Below, piece by piece: positions 53,704-63,009 of a stretch of DNA of 64,000 nucleotides. The notes beneath the pieces were generated by a model that worked only from the letters and a program-made list of their open reading frames with translations, had not been told where the DNA came from and ran no database searches. Positions within the stretch are counted from its first letter, which is position 1. Every line of letters begins with the position of its first letter. The position numbers were made by a program, and so were the translations under genes. Origin of the DNA: an uncultured Planctomycetales bacterium (GTDB lineage: Bacteria > Planctomycetota > UBA1135); NCBI GenBank assembly GCA_964482495.1, contig CAYZXS010000021.1, positions 658-64,657 on the forward strand, in the 5' to 3' direction.

Positions 53704-53918
53704 CAGGGATTGCTGCATGGTGGGGAATCCGGCTCCATCCTAGGGTCCGGAGGGAGCGGAGCGCGAACCGGTAGGATTCCGGATATACTCGGGCCGAACC
53801 TGCGCTACCGCCACCACTTGGGGCCGCAGGGTGTCGAGCCAGAACCAGCCTCTGGCAGTGTTCGTCCCGCATCGTCGCGTGGAGAATGGCTCCGCGGAGC
53901 CCCCCTCCCCTGCACGCC

Positions 53919-56156
53919 ATGAACCTGTTCCCGCTGGTCGTCGTCGCCCTTGGCCTGGCTGTGGCCCTCGCCGCCACCGCTGCGCGGCGCCTGGAGATGC
54001 GCCGGCTCGAGCGCGGCCTGGAGGAGCGGAAGCAGGCCAAGCGCAAGGGCAGCCACCGCGCCCGGCTGCAGTTCCCCCACGTCGACCTGAGCCGCTGCAT
54101 CGGCTGCGGCACCTGCGTCGCCGCCTGCCCAGAGGAGGGCGTGCTCGAGATCCTGCACGGCCAAGCCCTGGTGGTGCACGGCGCCCGCTGCGTCGGCCAC
54201 GGCCTCTGCGCCGCCGAGTGCCCGGTGGGCGGCATCGCCTTGACCCTGGGCGACCTGGAGGAGCGTCGCGACATCCCTGCGCTGACGGAGAGCCTCGAAG
54301 CGGCCGGGACGCCAGGCTTGTTCTTGGCCGGGGAAGTCACCGGCTACGCCTTGGTCCGGACCGCGATCGGCCACGGCAGCGCGGTGGCCCACGAAGCCGC
54401 GCGCCGCTGCCGGGAGTCCCCCGCCCCTGCCGGCGACGACGGCTGGCTCGACCTGTGCATCGTCGGCGCCGGGCCCGCCGGCCTGGCCTGCGCCCTGGAG
54501 GCCAAGCGCCAAGGGCTGCGCTTCCGCCTGCTCGAGCAGGAGGACACGATCGGCGGCACGGTCGCCAAGTACCCGCGCAACAAGCTGGTCATGACCCAGC
54601 CGGTCGAGCTGCCGCTGCACGGCAAGCTGACCCGCACCAGCTACCGCAAGGAGGAGCTGGTCGAGCTCTGGGAGCGCGTCGCGGCGGAGCAGGAGCTGCC
54701 GCTGCGCACCGGAGAGGAGCTGCTGGGGGTCGAACCAGTCGACGGGGTCGGCTACCGGGTCCGGACCACCGCGGGCGAGCACCGGGCGCGCTGCGTCTGC
54801 CTGGCCCTCGGCCGCCGCGGAACGCCGCGCAGGCTCGGGGTGCCGGGCGAGACCCTGCCGAAGGTCGCCTACGCGCTGCAGGACGCCAATTCCTACCGCG
54901 GCCGCAAGCTGCTGGTGGTGGGCGGCGGCGACAGCGCCATCGAGGCGGCCGTCGGCCTCGCCGAGCAGCCCGGCAACGAGGTCACGCTGTCCTACCGCAA
55001 GTCGGCCTTCTTCCGCCTCAAGGCGCGCAACGAGGCGCGCATCGAGCAGGCGGCGGCCAAGGGCAGCGTCCGCGTCGAGTTCGACTCCCAGGTCCGCGGC
55101 ATCCTGCCGGACCAAGTCGTGCTCGTGGCCGGCCGCGGCGAGCAGGCTCGCGAGATCGAGCTCGCCAACGACGCCGTCTTCGTCATGGTCGGCGGCGTGC
55201 CGCCCTACCCGCTGCTCGAGGCCAGCGGCGTCTCCTTCGCGCCCGAGGACCGGAAGGTGCCGGCGCCGGTGGTCGACCAGGGCCCCGGGCTGCTGGGCGC
55301 GCTCGCGACAGGCCTGGTGCTGACCCTGGCTGCGCTGGCCTGGGTCGGCTACTTCCTCGGCTACTACCAGCTCGACCCCGCCGGCCGCGCCCCGCACGGG
55401 CTGCACGGCTTGCTGCGGCCCTCGAGGGGCGCCGGTCTGGCCTTCGGGGTCGGCTCGACGGCCCTGATCCTGCTCAACCTGAGCTACCTGCTGCGGCGCA
55501 ACCCGAGGCTGCCGCTGCGCTTCGGATCGCTCCAGGCGTGGATGACCAGCCACGTCGCCACCGGCATCCTGGCCTTCGTGCTGGCGCTGCTGCACGCGGC
55601 GCTGGACCCGCGCCAGACGGTCGGCGGCCACGCCCTGGCCTGCCTGGCGGTCCTGGTCGGCACTGGCGCCATGGGCCGGTACCTCTATTCTTTCGTGCCG
55701 CGTGCGGCGAACGGACGCGAATTGGCGCTTGATGAGGTGGAGTCCCAGCTCGCCGCCCTCTCCGCCGCCTGGGACCAGACCCACCGCGGATTCGGCGAGC
55801 AGGTGCGGTCGGAGATCGAAGAGCTGGTGCGCCATCAACGCTGGGAGCGGTCCTTCTTCGGCAGGCTCTACGCCCTGATCGCGGGGCAGCGGAGCCTGCG
55901 GCGGGCGCTCGCCCGGCTGCGGGTGGAGGGCAAGCAGCGGGACATCCCCGAGAGCCAGATCCGCAAGCTCAAGACCCTGGCGCGCCGAGCCCACCGGACC
56001 TCGCTGATGGCCTCGCACTTCGAGGACCTGCGCGGGCTGCTGGCGAGCTGGCGCTACCTGCACCGCTGGATCGCCTTGCTGATGGTGCTGCTGATCGCCA
56101 CCCACGTCTTCACGGCGCTGAAGTACGCCGACTTGCCGGGAGCGCTGGGGCGGTGA
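53919..56156 (+). CDS. Membrane-anchored 2x[4Fe-4S] ferredoxin / FAD-NADPH oxidoreductase fused to a diheme-b-like transmembrane domain
   Basis: TM anchor; CIGCGTCVAACP and CVGHGLCAAECP; VGAGPAG; VGGGDSA plus YRK; two H-x13-H TM pairs; alternative start 53886. Confidence 0.88.
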   Translation: MNLFPLVVVALGLAVALAATAARRLEMRRLERGLEERKQAKRKGSHRARLQFPHVDLSRCIGCGTCVAACPEEGVLEILHGQALVVHGARCVGHGLCAAECPVGGIALTLGDLEERRDIPALTESLEAAGTPGLFLAGEVTGYALVRTAIGHGSAVAHEAARRCRESPAPAGDDGWLDLCIVGAGPAGLACALEAKRQGLRFRLLEQEDTIGGTVAKYPRNKLVMTQPVELPLHGKLTRTSYRKEELVELWERVAAEQELPLRTGEELLGVEPVDGVGYRVRTTAGEHRARCVCLALGRRGTPRRLGVPGETLPKVAYALQDANSYRGRKLLVVGGGDSAIEAAVGLAEQPGNEVTLSYRKSAFFRLKARNEARIEQAAAKGSVRVEFDSQVRGILPDQVVLVAGRGEQAREIELANDAVFVMVGGVPPYPLLEASGVSFAPEDRKVPAPVVDQGPGLLGALATGLVLTLAALAWVGYFLGYYQLDPAGRAPHGLHGLLRPSRGAGLAFGVGSTALILLNLSYLLRRNPRLPLRFGSLQAWMTSHVATGILAFVLALLHAALDPRQTVGGHALACLAVLVGTGAMGRYLYSFVPRAANGRELALDEVESQLAALSAAWDQTHRGFGEQVRSEIEELVRHQRWERSFFGRLYALIAGQRSLRRALARLRVEGKQRDIPESQIRKLKTLARRAHRTSLMASHFEDLRGLLASWRYLHRWIALLMVLLIATHVFTALKYADLPGALGR

Positions 56157-58495
56157 GGCTGCGCGATCCGCGCCTGTGGCTGAGCCTGGCGAGCCTCGCG
56201 GCGGTGGCGCTGCTGGCCTTCATCGACCTGCGCCGGAACACCTCTCCGGGCCCGGTCCACCCGACCCACGCCCAGCTCAAGGAGCTGCGCAGCCGCCGGG
56301 GTTGCGCGGAGTGCCACGGCGACGAGGCGGGCGGCATGGCCGGCGCCTGCCTGCGCTGCCACGAGGCGATCGCCCGCCAGTTGGAGCAGGGCAGCGGCCT
56401 GCACGGGAGCCTGGTGCAGCCGCCGGTGGAGGACTGCGGCCGCTGCCACCTCGAGCACCTCGGCGACGCCTTCCCGCTGATCTCGGACGACAGCTTCGAG
56501 CGGGCCGGCGCCGACCGGCTCGGCTTCGACCACGCCGTGGCCGAGTTCCGGCTCGTCGGCGCCCACGTCGAGCTCGCCTGCGACCGCTGCCACCCGGACG
56601 CCCAGCTCGGGCTGATGCCGGAGGGGAGGTCGCGCTTCCTCGACCAGGAGCAGGCCTGCGAGAGCTGCCACGAGGACCCGCACCGCGGCGCGATGCGGCG
56701 CGCTTGCGAGGACTGCCACGGACAGGAGCGGCCCTTCGAGCAGGTAGCGGTGTTCGAGCACGATGAGCGCTTCCCCTTGGTCGGCGGCCACGCCGGCCAG
56801 GCCTGCAAGGCCTGCCACCCGCAGGACAGCCTGCAGTCGGTCGAGGCCTTGGACCGGGGCGTGCCGGAGGAGTCCTGGCGCCGGTGTCTGGACTGCCACG
56901 CGTCGCCGCACGCTCCCCGCTTCCTGCGCGCCGCGGCGCGAGAGCAGGGCCAATCGGAGGCCGAGAGCTGCGCCGGCTGCCACCCGGTCGAGGGTCCCGC
57001 CTTCGCCGGCGCCGAGCTTCCCCGCGAGCGGCACGGCCTGAGCGGCTTCCCCTTGTCGCCGCCGCACGCCGAGCAGGACTGCCGGGCCTGCCACCAGCCA
57101 GCGGCCGAGGGCGTGGGCTGGGGCGCCCGCTTCCCGGGGCGCGCAGCGCAGGACTGCGGCGCCTGCCATCAGGACCCGCACCGCGGCCAGTTCGCCGGCG
57201 GCCCCTTCGGCGGCGGATGCCTGGACTGCCACCTGGAGACGACCTGGGCCCCGCCCGACTTCGATGCCGAACGCCACGAGCGGACCGGCTTCGCGCTGAC
57301 CGGCGCCCACCTCGAGGCGGAGTGCCGCGGCTGCCACCCCGACCCGCCGCCAGACGCGCCGCGGCGCTTCCGCGACACCGAGGGCCGCTGCGAGGACTGC
57401 CATGACGACGCACACCGCGGCGCCTTCCAGGCACCGACCGCCGCCCTGCCTCCTGCTGAGCAGGGCGAGTGCGGCCGCTGCCACGGCACCGAGCGCTTCG
57501 CGCCGGCGCTGGAGGGCCGCTTCGAGCACGGTCGCTGGACCGACTTCGGCCTGGAGGGGGCCCACCTGCGGGCGGACTGCCGCAGCTGCCACCCGGCGCT
57601 CCCGGAGCCGGATGCCGCCGGCCGCAGCTTCGCCTTCGTCGCCGACACCGTCGACGGCGACCCGCGCGCCTGCTCCAGCTGCCACGAGGACGTGCACGCC
57701 GGGGCCTTCGACGCCGAAGGCCTGCCGGCCCTCTTGGACGGCCGCGCCGGCTGCGATCGCTGCCACGACAGCGAGGTCTTCCGCGAGCTCCGCCCGGGCG
57801 CCTTCGATCACGGCGCCTGGACCGACTTCGCGCTGGCCGGGGCCCACGCCCAGAGCGGCTGCGAAGCCTGCCATGGCCGCGACCCGGCGCCCGCGGCCGG
57901 TACCCGGAGCCTTGGCCGCGTCGCCGACCGTTTCTCCGGCCCGGCGGACCGCTGCGTCAGCTGCCACCCGGACCCCCACCTCGGCCTCTTCGACCGCGCC
58001 GGCCAGCCCGCCGAGGTCGACGGCCGCCGAGGATGCGCCCGCTGCCACCAGCCGGTGTCCTTCCGGTCGCTGACCCTGGCCGGCTTCGACCACGGCCGGT
58101 GGACCGGCTACGCGCTCGCCGGCAAGCACGCGCAGGCCTCCTGCAACGGCTGCCACGCTCCCTTGGCGCAGGCCGACGCCCTCGGCCGCCGTCACGGCTT
58201 CGCCCGCGGCCAGGCCTGCGACGACTGCCACGCCGACCCGCACGTCGGCCAGTTCGCCGCCGCCGGCCGCACCGACTGCGCCCGCTGCCACGACGAGCAG
58301 GACTTCCGCCAGCCGCGCTTCGACCACCAGACCGACTCCCGCTTCCCGCTCGACGCCAATCACGCCGCGCTCGACTGCGCCCGCTGCCACAAGCCCTGGC
58401 CCCTGGCCGGCGGCGGCGAAGCGGTGCGCTACAAGCCGCTCGGCACCCGCTGCCAGGACTGCCACGGCTTCGGCTTCGAGGACCGCTCCCGATGA
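56153..58495 (+). CDS. Multiheme cytochrome c, 26 CxxCH motifs, N-terminal membrane anchor/signal
   Basis: 26 CxxCH counted by hand; GTGA overlap with upstream gene; SPGP..H after the hydrophobic N-terminus. Confidence 0.95.
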   Translation: MRLRDPRLWLSLASLAAVALLAFIDLRRNTSPGPVHPTHAQLKELRSRRGCAECHGDEAGGMAGACLRCHEAIARQLEQGSGLHGSLVQPPVEDCGRCHLEHLGDAFPLISDDSFERAGADRLGFDHAVAEFRLVGAHVELACDRCHPDAQLGLMPEGRSRFLDQEQACESCHEDPHRGAMRRACEDCHGQERPFEQVAVFEHDERFPLVGGHAGQACKACHPQDSLQSVEALDRGVPEESWRRCLDCHASPHAPRFLRAAAREQGQSEAESCAGCHPVEGPAFAGAELPRERHGLSGFPLSPPHAEQDCRACHQPAAEGVGWGARFPGRAAQDCGACHQDPHRGQFAGGPFGGGCLDCHLETTWAPPDFDAERHERTGFALTGAHLEAECRGCHPDPPPDAPRRFRDTEGRCEDCHDDAHRGAFQAPTAALPPAEQGECGRCHGTERFAPALEGRFEHGRWTDFGLEGAHLRADCRSCHPALPEPDAAGRSFAFVADTVDGDPRACSSCHEDVHAGAFDAEGLPALLDGRAGCDRCHDSEVFRELRPGAFDHGAWTDFALAGAHAQSGCEACHGRDPAPAAGTRSLGRVADRFSGPADRCVSCHPDPHLGLFDRAGQPAEVDGRRGCARCHQPVSFRSLTLAGFDHGRWTGYALAGKHAQASCNGCHAPLAQADALGRRHGFARGQACDDCHADPHVGQFAAAGRTDCARCHDEQDFRQPRFDHQTDSRFPLDANHAALDCARCHKPWPLAGGGEAVRYKPLGTRCQDCHGFGFEDRSR

Positions 58496-60165
58496 GGCTC
58501 CTTCCCCTCCCCCTCCCCGCTCTGCTCGCGGCGCTGCTCGGCGTCGCGGCCCTCTCGCCCGTCGCGGCCCAGGACCCCGGCATGCGCCGGGTCGAGGCCC
58601 GCGTGACCGCCTCCAGCCCCGGCCTCGCCACCCTCGACCGCGGCAACGACGCCGGCCTGCAGCCCGGCGACCGGGTCCGGCTGCACCCGCTCGGCGCCGC
58701 GGTCCTCGAGGGCCGGGTCGAGCAGGTCGGCGCCCGCGACGCCACGGTGCGCCTGAACGACCCGGCAGCGGCGGTCGACATCGGCGCCCGGGCCGAGGCC
58801 TTCGTGCCCGCCGACCGCATCCAGGAACCCGGCGGCGAGGCTCCCGGCCAGCCCCCGGCGCACGCGCCCTGGTCGCGGCCGCCGGACGAGTGGACCCAGG
58901 ACATGCCGCTGCTGGCGAAGTCCCAGGGCCGCAAGCCCGAGCAGCGCCCGGTCGAGTGGAGCGGCCGCTTCTTCAGCAGCGTCGACCACACCACCGACCG
59001 CGGCAGCGACGACGACCGGAGCTACCTCTACGCCCGCAGCGGCGCCGACCTGGACGCCCGCAACCCCTTCGGCCGCGGCGGCGAGCTGCGCATCGACTTC
59101 GAGGTCAACCACCGCGCCGACTCCAACCCCGGCTACCCCGACGAGAGCGAGACCGGGCTGCGCCTGGACCGGCTCTCCTGGTCGGTGGGCGGCGACCGCC
59201 ACGCCCCGCGGCGCTGGGAGTTCGGCCGCTTCCTGCACCGCGAGTTCCCGGAGTTCGGGGTCGCCGACGGCGCCGATTTCAGCGCCCGGCTGTCGCCGGC
59301 CAACACCTTCGGCGCCAGCTTCGGCTACCTGCCCGAGCTGGACTCCGACTACGCCACCGGCAAGGACCTGCAGACCTCCCTCTACTGGTCCCACACCAGC
59401 GGCGAGCGCCGCGAGCTGCGCGCCGGCGCCGGCTTCCAGAAGACCTGGCACCGCGGCAGCGCCGACCGCGACCTGTTCCTGGCCAAGCTGAGCTGGTCGC
59501 CGCCGGCCGGCCTGAACTTCTACTCGACCGCCTGGGTCGACCTCTACGGCAGCGAGGACACCGCCAAGTCCTCCGGCGCCGAGCTGACCCAGCTCTTCAG
59601 CAGCCTCGGCTGGCGGGCGGAGGGCGGCGACGGGGTGCGGCTGGGCTACTCGCGGATCCGCTTCCCGCAGCTGCTGCGGCTGCAGATCAGCCAGATCACG
59701 CTGGCGCAGCTGTCGGACAACCAGACCGACCGGATCGACCTCTCGGCCTGGAAACGGCTCAACGCCGATCTCCGCCTGTCGGGGCGGGTCGACTCCTGGA
59801 GCGACGAGGACGACAGCGGCGGCGGCGGACAGCTGCGGATGGACTGGCGCGGGCCGCTGTTCGCGAACGGCAACCTCGGCGCCGCTTTGTTCACCAACCA
59901 GGGCCAGTTCAGCTCGGTCACGGGGCTGCGCCTCGACGCCGACTGGGCCACCGGCCTGGGCTCCTGGCGGATCTCCTGGGAGAGCGCTCAATTCAGCCAG
60001 GAGGACTTCGTCGGCGATCAGGAGGAGCTGCTCCAGCACGCCCTCGAGCTCTCCTGGGATCTCTACGGCGGCACCGGCTGGTCCTGCTCGAGCTACCTCG
60101 AACAGCGCCTCGGCGACGAGATCGACTCCACGACCCTCGGCTTCTACCTCCAGCACCGGTTCTAG
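58492..60165 (+). CDS. Outer-membrane beta-barrel with N-terminal periplasmic beta-domain
   Basis: ATG 58492 overlaps upstream stop; signal peptide; amphipathic Trp/Tyr/Gly strands; C-terminal LGFYLQHRF BAM-type signal. Confidence 0.82.
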   Translation: MRLLPLPLPALLAALLGVAALSPVAAQDPGMRRVEARVTASSPGLATLDRGNDAGLQPGDRVRLHPLGAAVLEGRVEQVGARDATVRLNDPAAAVDIGARAEAFVPADRIQEPGGEAPGQPPAHAPWSRPPDEWTQDMPLLAKSQGRKPEQRPVEWSGRFFSSVDHTTDRGSDDDRSYLYARSGADLDARNPFGRGGELRIDFEVNHRADSNPGYPDESETGLRLDRLSWSVGGDRHAPRRWEFGRFLHREFPEFGVADGADFSARLSPANTFGASFGYLPELDSDYATGKDLQTSLYWSHTSGERRELRAGAGFQKTWHRGSADRDLFLAKLSWSPPAGLNFYSTAWVDLYGSEDTAKSSGAELTQLFSSLGWRAEGGDGVRLGYSRIRFPQLLRLQISQITLAQLSDNQTDRIDLSAWKRLNADLRLSGRVDSWSDEDDSGGGGQLRMDWRGPLFANGNLGAALFTNQGQFSSVTGLRLDADWATGLGSWRISWESAQFSQEDFVGDQEELLQHALELSWDLYGGTGWSCSSYLEQRLGDEIDSTTLGFYLQHRF

Positions 60166-60167
60166 AC

Positions 60168-61541
60168 ATGGCAACCCCGCTCCGCATCCGCCGCCTGGCG
60201 CCGCTGGCCCGCCCGCTCCTGACCCTGGGCCTGGCGCTGCTCACGACCCTCGCCTGCGTCCGCGGCCGTGAAGACGTCCCGCCGCAAGGCTGGTGGGACG
60301 GCCTCGGCCCGGTGATCCCGCACGACAAGTTCCCGGCCGACTGCTCGCTTTGCCACACCGGCCAGGGCTGGCAGGAGATCCGCGACGACTTCGCCTTCGA
60401 CCACGCCGCCGAGACCGGCTACCCGCTCGAAGGCGCCCACGCCGCGGCCCAGTGCCTGCGCTGTCACAACGACCGCGGCCCGGCGGCCGACTTCGCCGCC
60501 CGCGGCTGCGGCGGCTGCCACGAGGACGTGCACCTCGGCCAGCTCGGCACCAATTGCGAGGACTGCCACGAGCAGCCTGACTGGCGGCCGCGGGGACGGA
60601 TCTCCGAGCACGCCAAGACCCGCTTCCCGCTGATGGGAGCCCACGCCGCGACCGCCTGCCGCGCCTGCCACCCTGCGGCCGAGCTCGGGGTCTTCGTGCC
60701 CACCGACACCGAGTGCCTGAGCTGCCACCGCGACGACCTGGCGCGCGCCAAGGACCCGGACCACCTGGCGCAGGGCTGGACTGACGGCTGCGACCGCTGC
60801 CACATCTCGACGAGCTGGGGCGGCGCCGCCTTCAACCACGGCTGGTGGCCGCTGACCGGCGCCCACGGCTCCGCCAGCTGCAAGTCCTGCCACAGCGGCG
60901 GGGTCTACGCCGGCACCGACCCGGCCTGCTTCTCCTGCCACTCGGCCGAGTACACCGGCGCCGCGGATCCGGACCACGTCGCCCTCAACCTGCCGACCGC
61001 CTGCCGCCAGTGCCACACCACCCGCGGCTGGAAGCCGGCCGACATGGACCACTCGGTGCTCAGCGGCAGCTGCGTGAGCTGCCACCTGGCTGACTATCAG
61101 GCCACCACCGACCCGGACCACCAGGCGCTGGGCATCCCGACCACCTGCGAGGACTGCCACAGCACCCGCAACTGGCGCGACGCCAACTTCGACCACGCTG
61201 GGATCGCCAGCGGCTGCGTCAATTGCCACCTCGACGACTACCAGGCGACCACCAACCCGAACCACATCGCGGCCGGCTTCCCCACGACCTGCGAGGACTG
61301 CCACGACACGGTGCGCTGGAGGAACGGCACCTTCGACCACGACTTCCCGATCACCAGCGGCAAGCACAAGGGCTTCAACTGCAACCGCTGCCACCTGAAC
61401 AGCAGCAACTACGCCGACTTCTCCTGCACCCACTGCCACGCCCACCGCAAGTCGGAGATGGACGACGAGCACGACGGCGTCAGCGGCTACGTCTGGTCGA
61501 GCCCGGCCTGTTACACCTGCCACCCGGACGGACGCGAGTGA
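60168..61541 (+). CDS. Multiheme cytochrome c, 17 CxxCH motifs, possible lipoprotein
   Basis: Start ATG 60168; Arg-rich n-region, hydrophobic h-region, TLAC; 17 CxxCH counted by hand. Confidence 0.93.
   Translation: MATPLRIRRLAPLARPLLTLGLALLTTLACVRGREDVPPQGWWDGLGPVIPHDKFPADCSLCHTGQGWQEIRDDFAFDHAAETGYPLEGAHAAAQCLRCHNDRGPAADFAARGCGGCHEDVHLGQLGTNCEDCHEQPDWRPRGRISEHAKTRFPLMGAHAATACRACHPAAELGVFVPTDTECLSCHRDDLARAKDPDHLAQGWTDGCDRCHISTSWGGAAFNHGWWPLTGAHGSASCKSCHSGGVYAGTDPACFSCHSAEYTGAADPDHVALNLPTACRQCHTTRGWKPADMDHSVLSGSCVSCHLADYQATTDPDHQALGIPTTCEDCHSTRNWRDANFDHAGIASGCVNCHLDDYQATTNPNHIAAGFPTTCEDCHDTVRWRNGTFDHDFPITSGKHKGFNCNRCHLNSSNYADFSCTHCHAHRKSEMDDEHDGVSGYVWSSPACYTCHPDGRE
60927..61340 (+). repeat. 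Three tandem 144-nt (48-aa) diheme repeats in the 17-heme cytochrome
   Basis: Units start at 60927, 61071 and 61215: CxxCH..Y....P.H.....PT.CxxCH....W.....DH. Confidence 0.85.
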
Positions 61542-62218
61542 GCGGCTGGCGCCGGGCCTACCGCGAAGCCCCCGAGCTCTTCGACGCCTTCGCCCGCGCC
61601 GAGGACCCGGACGGCGTGGTGGCGGCGGCGCTGCGGCGCCGGGCCGGCTTCGTGGACCGGCGGGTGCTGGAGCTGGGCTGCGGCACCGGCCGCTTCGGGC
61701 CGGCCTTGGCGGACGGCGCCGGGTCGTGGATCGGCCTGGATCCCGAGCCGGCGATGGTCGGCCTGGCGCGGGGCGCTTGGCGGGGACGGCCGGGCATGGA
61801 GCTGGTGCGCGGCCGAGGCGAGCGGCTGCCCTTCCCGGACCAGAGCTTCGACGCCGCGGTGGCCACCTGGGTGCTCGGCGACTTGCCGGTCGGACGGCGG
61901 GCGGCGGTGATCCTGAGTTGCGACCGGGTGCTGCGGCCTGACGGGGCCCTCTGGCTGCTCGAGAACGCCGGCGGCTGCGCCTTCGACGCCCTGGAAGGAG
62001 GCCGCGGACCGGGCTGGGCGGCGGCCGCGGGCTTCGAGCCGGTCGAGGAGGTCGAGACCGAGCTCCGCTTCCCAGACGAGGCCAGCGCGGCGCGCTGCCT
62101 CGGCTACCTGCTCGGCGACGGCGCCCGCGAGGCCTTGTCGCTGGCCCCTCGGCGCCGCTTCAGCCACCGGGTGCTCATCCTGCGGCGGCCGCGGGGCCGC
62201 TGGTCGAGCCCGTCTTGA
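61538..62218 (+). CDS. Class I SAM-dependent methyltransferase
   Basis: GTG 61538 overlaps cytochrome stop; VLELGCGTG, GLDP, LPFPDQSFD, RVLRPDG. Confidence 0.88.
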   Translation: MSGWRRAYREAPELFDAFARAEDPDGVVAAALRRRAGFVDRRVLELGCGTGRFGPALADGAGSWIGLDPEPAMVGLARGAWRGRPGMELVRGRGERLPFPDQSFDAAVATWVLGDLPVGRRAAVILSCDRVLRPDGALWLLENAGGCAFDALEGGRGPGWAAAAGFEPVEEVETELRFPDEASAARCLGYLLGDGAREALSLAPRRRFSHRVLILRRPRGRWSSPS

Positions 62219-62954
62219 GCTCCCCGCCCTCGAACCAGAAGAACTCCACGGTGCTCGAGCGCAGCATGTCGTCCCGGCGGTAGACCGGAAACCCGAGGCC
62301 CGGCGCCCGCACCTGCTCGACCGCCCGGCGGTATTCCGTCGAGTCCACCGCGAGGTCGTGACCGCGGACCGCGCCGCCGCGGCCGACCGGCAGGAAGCGG
62401 TACAGGTGCCAAGCGTGCAGCTCCAGGCCCTCCGCCCGCAGCCGCTGGAGCAGCCGGGCGACGGCGCCGAGGGCGTCGAGGTTGCGCCGGGTCACCACGG
62501 TGCCGATGGTCAGCTCCTTGCCGCTGGCGGCCAGCTCGCCGATTCCCGCCATCAGGCGATGGAAGTGGCCGCCGGGGGCGGACCGGAGCTGGTCGTGCAG
62601 GACGGCGTCGGCGGCCTCGAGCGGCAGCAGGTAGCGGTCGACCCAGTCGAAGGCGGCGAAGCCCGGCGGCGGCGCCAGGCCGTTGCTGCCGACCTGCACC
62701 AGGAAGCCCAGCTCGCGGGCGCGGCGGCCGAGCCGCTCGAGGTCGTGCGGCCACAGGAAGGGCTCGCCGCCGCCGAGCACGACGTTGCGGTAACCGGCCC
62801 GACGCAGGCGCTCCAGCAGCTCGGCGGCGCCCTCGAAGCTGGCGGTGTCGAAGCCCGTCTCGCTGGCGCAGAAGGCGCAGCCCATGTCGCAATCGGGCAG
62901 CAGGAAGACCGAGGCGATGCGCTTCGCGGAGCCGGGCGGGCGGAGGGCGGGCAT
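62175..62954 (-). CDS. Radical SAM protein, single domain
   Basis: CDMGCAFC (CxxxCxxC), GGGEPFL, SNG, TVVTRRN, FLPVGRG; no SPASM cysteines. Confidence 0.9.
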   Translation of the reverse strand: MPALRPPGSAKRIASVFLLPDCDMGCAFCASETGFDTASFEGAAELLERLRRAGYRNVVLGGGEPFLWPHDLERLGRRARELGFLVQVGSNGLAPPPGFAAFDWVDRYLLPLEAADAVLHDQLRSAPGGHFHRLMAGIGELAASGKELTIGTVVTRRNLDALGAVARLLQRLRAEGLELHAWHLYRFLPVGRGGAVRGHDLAVDSTEYRRAVEQVRAPGLGFPVYRRDDMLRSSTVEFFWFEGGELKTGSTSGPAAAAG

Positions 62955-62969
62955 GGATCCGGGTACAGG

Positions 62970-63009
62970 AATAAGCAAAGGGCGGGGAGGATGCCAGCCC
63001 TCCCCGCCC
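62970..63009 (-). terminator. Intrinsic terminator of the 63028-63945 gene
   Basis: 11-bp stem GGGCGGGGAGG/CCTCCCCGCCC, 8-nt loop, then TTTGCTTATT on the minus strand. Confidence 0.8.

Follow-up and report, generated by a model that had tools for sequence, protein, structure and literature searches.

A 26-heme cytochrome of a planctomycete as the probable periplasmic cable of a PCC3-type porin-cytochrome conduit

Introduction

Porin-cytochrome conduits of the PCC3 type are a widespread candidate route for extracellular electron transfer. They comprise four genes, one for a porin, one for a membrane protein and two for multiheme cytochromes, of which one is extracellular and the other periplasmic (He et al. 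2017, PMC5566968). The periplasmic cytochrome carries a median of 21 hemes. The membrane protein, of about 300 residues and with five helices, has an SGxxG motif in transmembrane helix (TM) 4 and WX3HX13H motifs in TM3 and TM5, and has been likened to the ferric-reductase domain, with two HX13H pairs for two b hemes (PMC5566968, citing Zhang et al. 2013). In Gallionellaceae, the corresponding periplasmic subunit ('Cluster 20') has 21, 24 or 27 hemes, yields long linear AlphaFold models and may span the periplasm (Hoover et al., PMC9900912). Here we analyse a gene for a 26-heme c-type cytochrome, gene B, and its neighbours A, C and D on a 64,000-nucleotide stretch of DNA from an uncultured Planctomycetales bacterium (GenBank assembly GCA_964482495.1, contig CAYZXS010000021.1, positions 658 to 64,657), hereafter called the window, whose own numbering is used throughout.

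In Mtr and Pcc systems, the electrons come from the quinol pool by way of CymA, ImcH or CbcL and of soluble carriers. A different kind of heme chain is found in GSU1996, a periplasmic protein in which tandem triheme c7-like domains hold a linear array of hemes, with one His-Met heme per domain; nanowires of this type have been proposed to act as capacitors (PMC10138318). The original prediction for gene B, made from the DNA sequence alone, invoked such c7 polymers and described a linear heme wire suited to the enlarged periplasm of planctomycetes. We find that B is very probably the periplasmic heme cable of a PCC3-type conduit. Periplasm-spanning by homologues of B is an idea already in print (PMC5566968, PMC9900912), and the locus adds to it an unusual inner-membrane partner.

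Results

Heme motifs and distal histidines of the cytochrome

The 780-residue product of gene B contains 26 CxxCH motifs, which account for all of its 52 cysteines, and a scan of the entire chain for CxxxCH, CxxxxCH and CxxCK found none of these variants. Shuffling the residues of the protein produced on average 0.22 and at most three CxxCH motifs. The reading frame has a third-position GC content (GC3) of 0.87, typical of genes in this window of 72% GC. Cutting the chain after every third CxxCH placed three motifs in an N-terminal unit (residues 1-99), then gave seven triheme repeats and left a partial repeat with two hemes at the end (Table 1), and thereby reproduced exactly the architecture that had been read from the sequence before. 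The repeats follow the consensus f.H..f.L.G.H....CxxCH / CxxCH.dpH / CxxCH, with three non-motif histidines in each, and share 28-49% pairwise identity, R5, R6 and R7 being the closest to each other.

Beyond the heme motifs, B has 28 histidines, and its four methionines lie at positions 1, 62, 155 and 181. In an alignment of 73 homologues, all of them 26-heme members of the family (mean column identity 42%), the 26 CxxCH motifs and exactly 26 non-motif histidines are invariant, H36 and H681 being the sole two that are not conserved. One distal histidine per heme, as originally proposed, is thus a property of the family. Because the 26 invariant distal histidines match the 26 hemes, all hemes are probably bis-His ligated, low-spin and dedicated to non-catalytic electron transfer, and the conservation argues for the electron-transfer role that had been assigned to them. 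Bis-His hemes are usually of low potential. A catalytic site is disfavoured, since each heme has one invariant sixth ligand, methionine candidates and variant motifs are lacking, and the chain offers only 30 residues per heme. The protein scores well above threshold for the Pfam family PF14522, Cytochrome_C7 (110.6 bits against 24.8, E 3.2e-32, six stretches); this is a broad domain family, and membership says little about function. In the diheme tail, H725, H737 and R759 are invariant among the 73 homologues, and Y760, P762, L763 and G764 nearly so.

Kinship with PCC3 conduits

A profile of the B family (A1) aligned to that of a 24-heme family (A3) with 100% probability and an E value of 2.5e-70 over 559 columns, and the alignment is collinear (A1 11-727 against A3 15-608). 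A3 was built from the 24-heme matches to a Rhodocyclaceae protein (locus L007, which had been retrieved with B) and includes the Sulfurirhabdus protein P0353, with the reference proteins of Sideroxydans lithotrophicus ES-1 standing outside the comparison; the Gallionellaceae protein P0387 was a further match in the search with the L007 protein. On the strength of this collinear profile match we regard B as the equivalent, in planctomycetes, of the periplasmic cytochrome of PCC3.

Heme counts among the relatives of the L007 protein (P0271-P0390) are multiples of three in 118 of 120 cases, and exactly 24 non-motif histidines are invariant in the 24-heme members. Their genes adjoin a membrane protein of 309-324 residues, which in L007 carries two WX3HX13H motifs, and the membrane-protein and cytochrome genes are followed by those for another cytochrome and for a large protein without annotation that we take to be the porin. 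Since this layout matches the published one (PMC5566968), we class these loci as PCC3-type. Across the family in Betaproteobacteria and Nitrospira we observed 21, 24, 27, 30, 33, 36, 39, 42 and 45 hemes, so that repetition of the triheme module can bring a single chain to 45 hemes or more.

The constituents of PCC3 recur in the window. The signature of the membrane protein (five helices, (S/T)GxxG and two WX3HX13H motifs) is present in the C-terminal domain of A, C (22 strands in its model) and D (17 CxxCH) correspond to the barrel and the second cytochrome, and B combines many hemes with few residues per heme and a repetitive build. B and the 24-heme cytochromes both consist of a three-heme cap and seven triheme repeats with one invariant distal histidine per heme, both vary in steps of three hemes, and both are accompanied by a five-helix protein with two WX3HX13H motifs, a barrel and a second cytochrome.

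There are also differences. Members of the B family have 3n+2 hemes (23, 26 or 29), whereas the betaproteobacterial family has 3n, because B ends in an extra diheme unit; this tail is missing from the betaproteobacterial homologues, and the profile alignment stops at about A1 position 727. The N-terminus of B appears to be an uncleaved anchor, in contrast to the cleavable AAAAQ-type signal of a betaproteobacterial homologue, and the distal histidine after the second motif lies at +4 in B and at +9 in the PCC3 cytochrome. In the window, the membrane partner is fused to an iron-sulfur (Fe-S) flavoprotein and the barrel gene precedes that of the outer cytochrome, whereas betaproteobacterial PCC3 loci encode the membrane protein separately and have the outer cytochrome before the barrel. 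The conduit thus appears to be a distinct variant of PCC3, a type previously predicted in iron-oxidising bacteria.

Repeat number and distribution

Searching 5.8 billion proteins returned at least 1782 relatives of B, and all named ones belong to Planctomycetota, including the isolate Pla163. Among the best 120 of these, 23 hemes occur in 34 proteins, 26 in 75 and 29 in eight. In all but one of 16 homologues examined, the change in count corresponds to the loss or gain of one R5/R6-type module. The comparison of repeat number among homologues, as had been suggested, thus reveals steps of one triheme module.

A close homologue of B is encoded in 22 of 301 sampled Planctomycetota genomes (about 7%), or 20 of 237 genera, and in each of the five genomes from the same genus as the window; B is an accessory trait with a patchy occurrence in the phylum. 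B-like homologues of similar or greater length exist in Betaproteobacteria and Nitrospira, the betaproteobacterial ones having 21-27 hemes and relatives up to 45, and B exceeds the ordinary PCC3 cytochromes of Gram-negative bacteria in length by two hemes. With comparable lengths in other phyla and a patchy presence in its own, B has no evident tie to the enlarged planctomycete periplasm, and this part of the original prediction found no support.

The genome to which the window belongs (3.9 Mb, 87.6% complete) encodes CcsA-type heme-attachment proteins. It is also rich in cytochromes: more than 20 other open reading frames (ORFs) have at least four CxxCH motifs, three of them with 13 (examples of cytochrome ORFs elsewhere in the genome are C8:5436-7889, C27:53720-55120 and C63:5190-6311).

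N-terminal anchor and shape

An AlphaFold2 model of B, computed from the homologue alignment (mean predicted local distance difference test score, pLDDT, 83.5), has a helix at residues 6-28 and elsewhere short helices and coil, the pattern expected of a chain packed with heme. In 40 homologues inspected, the N-terminal helix ends in bulky or charged residues and is followed by a conserved TSPGPL..H, and none of these proteins has an Ala-x-Ala cleavage site after it. TSPGPL..H directly adjoins the helix and supplies the first distal histidine, with the first heme about 10 residues past the helix. B is exported from the cytoplasm, and its N-terminal helix probably stays uncleaved and serves as a signal-anchor in the inner membrane. 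A helix lacking a cleavage motif, together with the adjoining TSPGPL..H, suggests that heme 1 is held at this membrane. The most plausible shape of the whole protein is an elongated wire, whose length by analogy with MtrA and GSU1996 would be roughly 0.8-1 nm per heme.

The gene cluster and its flavoprotein

Gene A encodes an Fe-S flavoprotein fused to a membrane domain with two predicted b hemes. An N-terminal transmembrane helix (residues 14-32) and a positively charged stretch precede a ferredoxin-like domain (Fer4_10, 4.9e-10) with a CxxCxxCxxxC motif. A second Fe-S motif at 54189-54224, CVGHGLCAAECP (CxxHxxCxxxCP), has histidine in place of the expected cysteine ligand. The flavoprotein part matches Pyr_redox_3 (Pfam 1.3e-41), with GAGPAG as the flavin adenine dinucleotide (FAD) site and GGGDSA as the site for nicotinamide adenine dinucleotide or its phosphate, NAD(P). 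The C-terminal membrane domain (residues 461-756) resembles that of ferric reductases and comprises five helices, a TGAMG motif and two copies of WX3HX13H (Table 1); four of its helices scored as hydrophobic peaks and the fifth, around TGAMG, was assigned by eye. The Pfam model Ferric_reduct remains below its cutoff on A (3.3e-5, 24.4 against 28 bits). The family of fused A proteins, of about 740 residues, has at least 526 members, and in Pla163 a fused A homologue shares one 4.95-Mb contig with the B homologue.

A homologue of this flavoprotein stands alone in betaproteobacterial loci of the PCC3 type. All three that were inspected, from a Rhodocyclaceae bacterium (L007), Sulfurirhabdus autotrophica (L028) and a Gallionellaceae metagenome-assembled genome (L029), have a Fer4 and Pyr_redox_3 flavoprotein gene in divergent orientation beside the membrane-protein gene. 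The products are 38-44% identical to residues 1-460 of A (E 1e-77 to 7e-96). In the PCC3 papers that we consulted, there is no mention of a flavoprotein, FAD or pyridine nucleotides.

Gene C encodes an outer-membrane beta-barrel, composed of a signal peptide, a small beta domain (residues 31-106), a linker and a barrel (residues 155-556) with the terminus ...LQHRF. Its AlphaFold2 model is confident (pLDDT 91.4; predicted template modelling score, pTM, 0.78) and has 22 strands, and Foldseek returned FimD/PapC usher pores and porins as best matches (E 6e-9 to 1e-5); Pfam and NCBIfam gave no match for the protein. Its homologues form 437 cluster representatives. The small beta domain is likewise confidently predicted; the Pro-rich linker between it and the barrel has low confidence. 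This domain may serve as a docking site for the cytochrome or as a plug of the barrel. The protein encoded by gene D, with an extra cysteine in a lipobox-like motif, is a putative lipoprotein cytochrome of the outer membrane or cell surface.

The stop codon of A overlaps the start of B (GTGA) and that of B the start of C (ATGA), which points to translational coupling of A with B and of B with C. Among 15 full-length Planctomycetota loci, which with four truncated ones formed our set, 13 from several families keep the order A-B-C-D; in 13 of the 15, one fused ORF encodes A. In two loci (L018 and L019) no homologue of gene C was detected, and A is split into two ORFs there. We observed a second subtype in eight loci (L002, L003 and L020-L025), with a fused A, a 23-heme B and the barrel; where other loci have a single 13-22-heme D, these have a 7-heme protein, joined in seven of them by an 11-heme one of about 950 residues. 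In Acidobacteriota (L005:6755-12952 and L008:6613-11273), a stand-alone 307-residue membrane protein with two WX3HX13H motifs precedes one cytochrome of 38-40 hemes, which aligns with both B and D and looks like a fusion of the two; in L005, a 482-residue protein ending in ...GLTYRF follows and is likely a barrel.

Downstream of D lie a methyltransferase-like gene and a convergent radical-SAM gene (Table 1). The former is beside A-D in no related locus and the latter in only one (L004). We therefore rejected both as accessories of the conduit and regard them as passengers.

Table 1. Features of the cytochrome gene cluster in the window and of related flavoprotein genes in betaproteobacterial loci. 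SAM, S-adenosylmethionine.
Feature	Position	Strand	Description	Basis
Gene A	53886..56156	+	756 residues; Fe-S/FAD flavoprotein fused to diheme-b membrane domain	Pfam, motifs, hydropathy
A, ferredoxin-like motif	54096-54128		CxxCxxCxxxC	Fer4_10
A, first WX3HX13H	55539-55595		WMTSH-x13-H, residues 552-570	
A, TGAMG	55662-55676		residues 593-597	
A, second WX3HX13H	56049-56105		WRYLH-x13-H, residues 722-740	
Gene B	56153..58495	+	26-heme c-type cytochrome, 780 residues; GTG start	Cytochrome_C7 matches
B, N-terminal hydrophobic helix	56168..56236	+	residues 6-28	hydropathy peak residues 8-26; AlphaFold2 helix residues 6-28
B, three-heme cap	56237..56449	+	residues 29-99; CAECH, CLRCH, CGRCH	distal His H39 and H84; H102 just 3' of cap
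B, seven triheme repeats	56450..58291	+	residues 100-713; 81-94 residues each	motif cutting, repeat alignment
B, R1	56450-56719	+		
B, R2	56720-56983	+		
B, R3	56984-57232	+		
B, R4	57233-57484	+		
B, R5	57485-57766	+		
B, R6	57767-58048	+		
B, R7	58049-58291	+		
B, C-terminal two-heme partial repeat	58292..58492	+	residues 714-780	motif cutting, alignment
Gene C	58492..60165	+	557 residues; outer-membrane beta-barrel	AlphaFold2 and Foldseek
C, small beta domain	58582-58809		N-terminal domain of C	
Gene D	60168..61541	+	457 residues; 17 CxxCH (35 Cys); extra Cys in lipobox-like LLTTLAC	Cytochrome_C7 9.4e-21
SAM-methyltransferase-like ORF	61538-62218	+	GTGA overlap with gene D; overlaps convergent radical-SAM gene	
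Radical-SAM gene	62175-62978	-		
Stand-alone flavoprotein gene	L007:5499-6674	-	adjoins PCC3 membrane-protein gene	
Stand-alone flavoprotein gene	L028:6696-7991	-	adjoins PCC3 membrane-protein gene	
Stand-alone flavoprotein gene	L029:2-1246	-	adjoins PCC3 membrane-protein gene	

Discussion

Our analysis goes beyond the original prediction in placing B within a larger assembly: the cytochrome is very probably a subunit of a conserved four-gene conduit of the PCC3 type. As far as the protein itself is concerned, the earlier description as a wire of triheme repeats stands in that B is a heme-dense triheme repeat protein, but it is not a c7 polymer of the GSU1996 type. The corresponding model TIGR04257 reaches 24.2 bits against a cutoff of 40 (E 2.8e-5), with no single stretch passing alone, and in a profile search of the PDB GSU1996 (3OV0) was the best match to B, but a weak one (E 7.5e-10). 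Like this dodecaheme protein of Geobacter sulfurreducens, B is a single chain of tandem triheme c7-like domains. The ligands differ: judged from its sequence, B is all bis-His, with three methionines beyond the start, and it cannot have one His-Met heme per domain as GSU1996 does, because there are four methionines in total and 26 invariant distal histidines. Before the first motif of the repeat, B has H-x9-11-H where GSU1996 has FxHxxH, and after the second motif CxxCH-x3-H is part of a distal pattern unlike that of GSU1996. GSU1996 is also soluble and encoded outside any porin cluster, whereas B belongs to a porin-cytochrome cluster.

In functional terms the locus resembles MtrCAB and the Geobacter system OmaB/OmbB/OmcB, which likewise combine a periplasmic multiheme cytochrome, a barrel and a lipoprotein cytochrome, and B shares with MtrA a very low ratio of about 30-33 residues per heme. 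We rejected the MtrA/DmsE decaheme family as an assignment for B, since the match to it is partial and weak (6R2Q_A, E 9.7e-9) and heme number and repeat unit are different: B has 26 hemes where MtrA and OmaB have 10 or 8, and the repeat of MtrA is pentaheme and NrfB-like. MtrB has 26 strands, compared with 22 in the model of C. Unlike in Mtr and Pcc systems, one anchored B chain could bridge both membranes, and the inner partner is a fusion of flavoprotein and diheme-b domain. This fusion resembles NOX, FRE, STEAP and MsrQ in its two HX13H pairs on two helices, its b hemes and a cytoplasmic flavin and NAD(P)H module. It differs from the NOX/FRE type, in which the dehydrogenase is C-terminal and FNR-like, by an N-terminal TrxR/YpdA-like Pyr_redox_3 domain with a ferredoxin, and from all four in having a 26-heme cytochrome as its electron acceptor.

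We consider it moderately probable that A, B, C and D together export electrons from a cytoplasmic donor of the NAD(P)H type. The cytoplasmic part of A would take electrons at its FAD from NAD(P)H or a comparable donor and pass them via two Fe-S clusters to the two b hemes, ligated by the two HX13H pairs, and thus across the inner membrane. The anchored B would accept them at its membrane-proximal heme and relay them over the periplasm through 26 bis-His hemes, until its far end, with the planctomycete-specific diheme tail, enters the barrel C and hands them to D. D could then reduce an extracellular acceptor such as Fe(III) or Mn(IV) minerals or humic quinones. Such a conduit would bypass the quinone pool and serve as an electron sink for redox balancing and not as a proton-pumping respiratory chain. 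To our knowledge, all characterised proteins with a ferric-reductase domain (NOX, FRE, STEAP, MsrQ) carry electrons outward from the cytoplasmic side. Outward flow is preferred because a flavoprotein is fused to the diheme-b domain and this superfamily runs outward, and because electrons moving inward would have to overcome both an unfavourable redox gradient and the membrane potential.

Several points weigh against this model. PCC3 has been described as 'functionally unverified', with no experiment for any such system, and in iron oxidisers it is usually proposed to run inward. In tblastn comparisons, C had no similarity to betaproteobacterial PCC3 porins. The model of B has a pTM of only 0.44, and Foldseek found no match to it in the PDB at E <= 10. 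The surface location of D is a prediction from its putative lipobox, the insertion of B into C is proposed by analogy, and we infer both which way the electrons flow and which donor supplies them (NADPH, NADH, a thiol or ferredoxin).

The same conduit could instead run inward and convey electrons from extracellular Fe(II), minerals or cathodes via D, C and B to the inner membrane. B is homologous to the PCC3-type cytochromes of Gallionellaceae and relatives. PCC3 has been put forward as a possible iron oxidase, with expression in Sideroxydans, and multiheme chains are in principle reversible. We nevertheless regard inward flow as unlikely, for in A the diheme-b domain is coupled directly to a flavoprotein of the NAD(P) type, and the reduction of NAD(P)+ (about -320 mV) with electrons from Fe(II), against an inside-negative potential, would be doubly uphill with no energy-input module visible; hemes that are all bis-His, and so typically of low potential, speak against it as well. 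Another reading, in which B does not thread the barrel and is mainly a periplasmic electron store or a hub for periplasmic reductases, appears quite improbable. Its 26 closely spaced low-potential hemes could indeed hold 26 electrons, and the capacitor role proposed for GSU1996-type nanowires (PMC10138318) has been mentioned for PCC3 too. A conduit is instead favoured by the strictly kept gene order and the translational coupling that link B with a large barrel and with a lipoprotein cytochrome, and an N-terminal membrane anchor fits a tethered cable more readily than a store that diffuses; besides, storage and conduction can coexist.

The heme-dense, repetitive architecture of B might also bring to mind a secreted subunit that polymerises into an extracellular filament of the OmcS, OmcE or OmcZ type. 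We think this very improbable: with invariant distal histidines equal in number to the hemes, B has no need of a ligand from a neighbouring subunit, the conserved anchor has no cleavage motif, one chain by itself already spans about 26 hemes, and neither the PDB profile search nor Foldseek revealed any likeness to these three proteins. The least probable reading, and one we hardly credit, makes B a multiheme enzyme with a catalytic site, such as a reductase acting on some soluble substrate in the periplasm. The profile matches to octaheme and pentaheme reductases that could favour it are weak (E 1e-3 to 4e-3) and span short CxxCH stretches only. Every heme has its invariant sixth-ligand histidine, CxxCK and Lys- or Tyr-type active-site motifs are absent, and the density of hemes leaves no catalytic domain. 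The class of NrfA, octaheme nitrite or tetrathionate reductases and HAO was rejected, since B, judged from its sequence, has no open heme and none with a distal ligand other than histidine.

More boldly, and with considerable doubt, one could propose that PCC3 conduits generally, including those of iron-oxidising Betaproteobacteria, are wired to a cytoplasmic Fe-S flavoprotein and not to the quinone pool. They would then be NOX-like trans-envelope NAD(P)H:extracellular-acceptor oxidoreductases; in the planctomycete version, the anchored 26-heme B would be a single covalent membrane-to-membrane cable that works with no soluble carrier.

The planctomycete version of PCC3 bears on the two questions of direction and inner-membrane partner. 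The fusion of its diheme-b subunit to an NAD(P)-type Fe-S flavoprotein is a clue that points to a cytoplasmic donor and outward flow, and further clues come from a long cytochrome that is apparently tethered to the inner membrane and changes its length by whole triheme modules. The link to the flavoprotein is the most interesting by-product of our analysis, as it bears on how PCC3 works in general; if it is true, the planctomycete fusion would be a Rosetta stone for these conduits. The cultured isolate Pla163 encodes homologues of A and of B and should therefore be open to genetic and biochemical work. If the proposed mechanism is correct, some Planctomycetota could unload reducing equivalents onto minerals or humics outside the cell, and the role of PCC3 in iron oxidisers would deserve a fresh reading.

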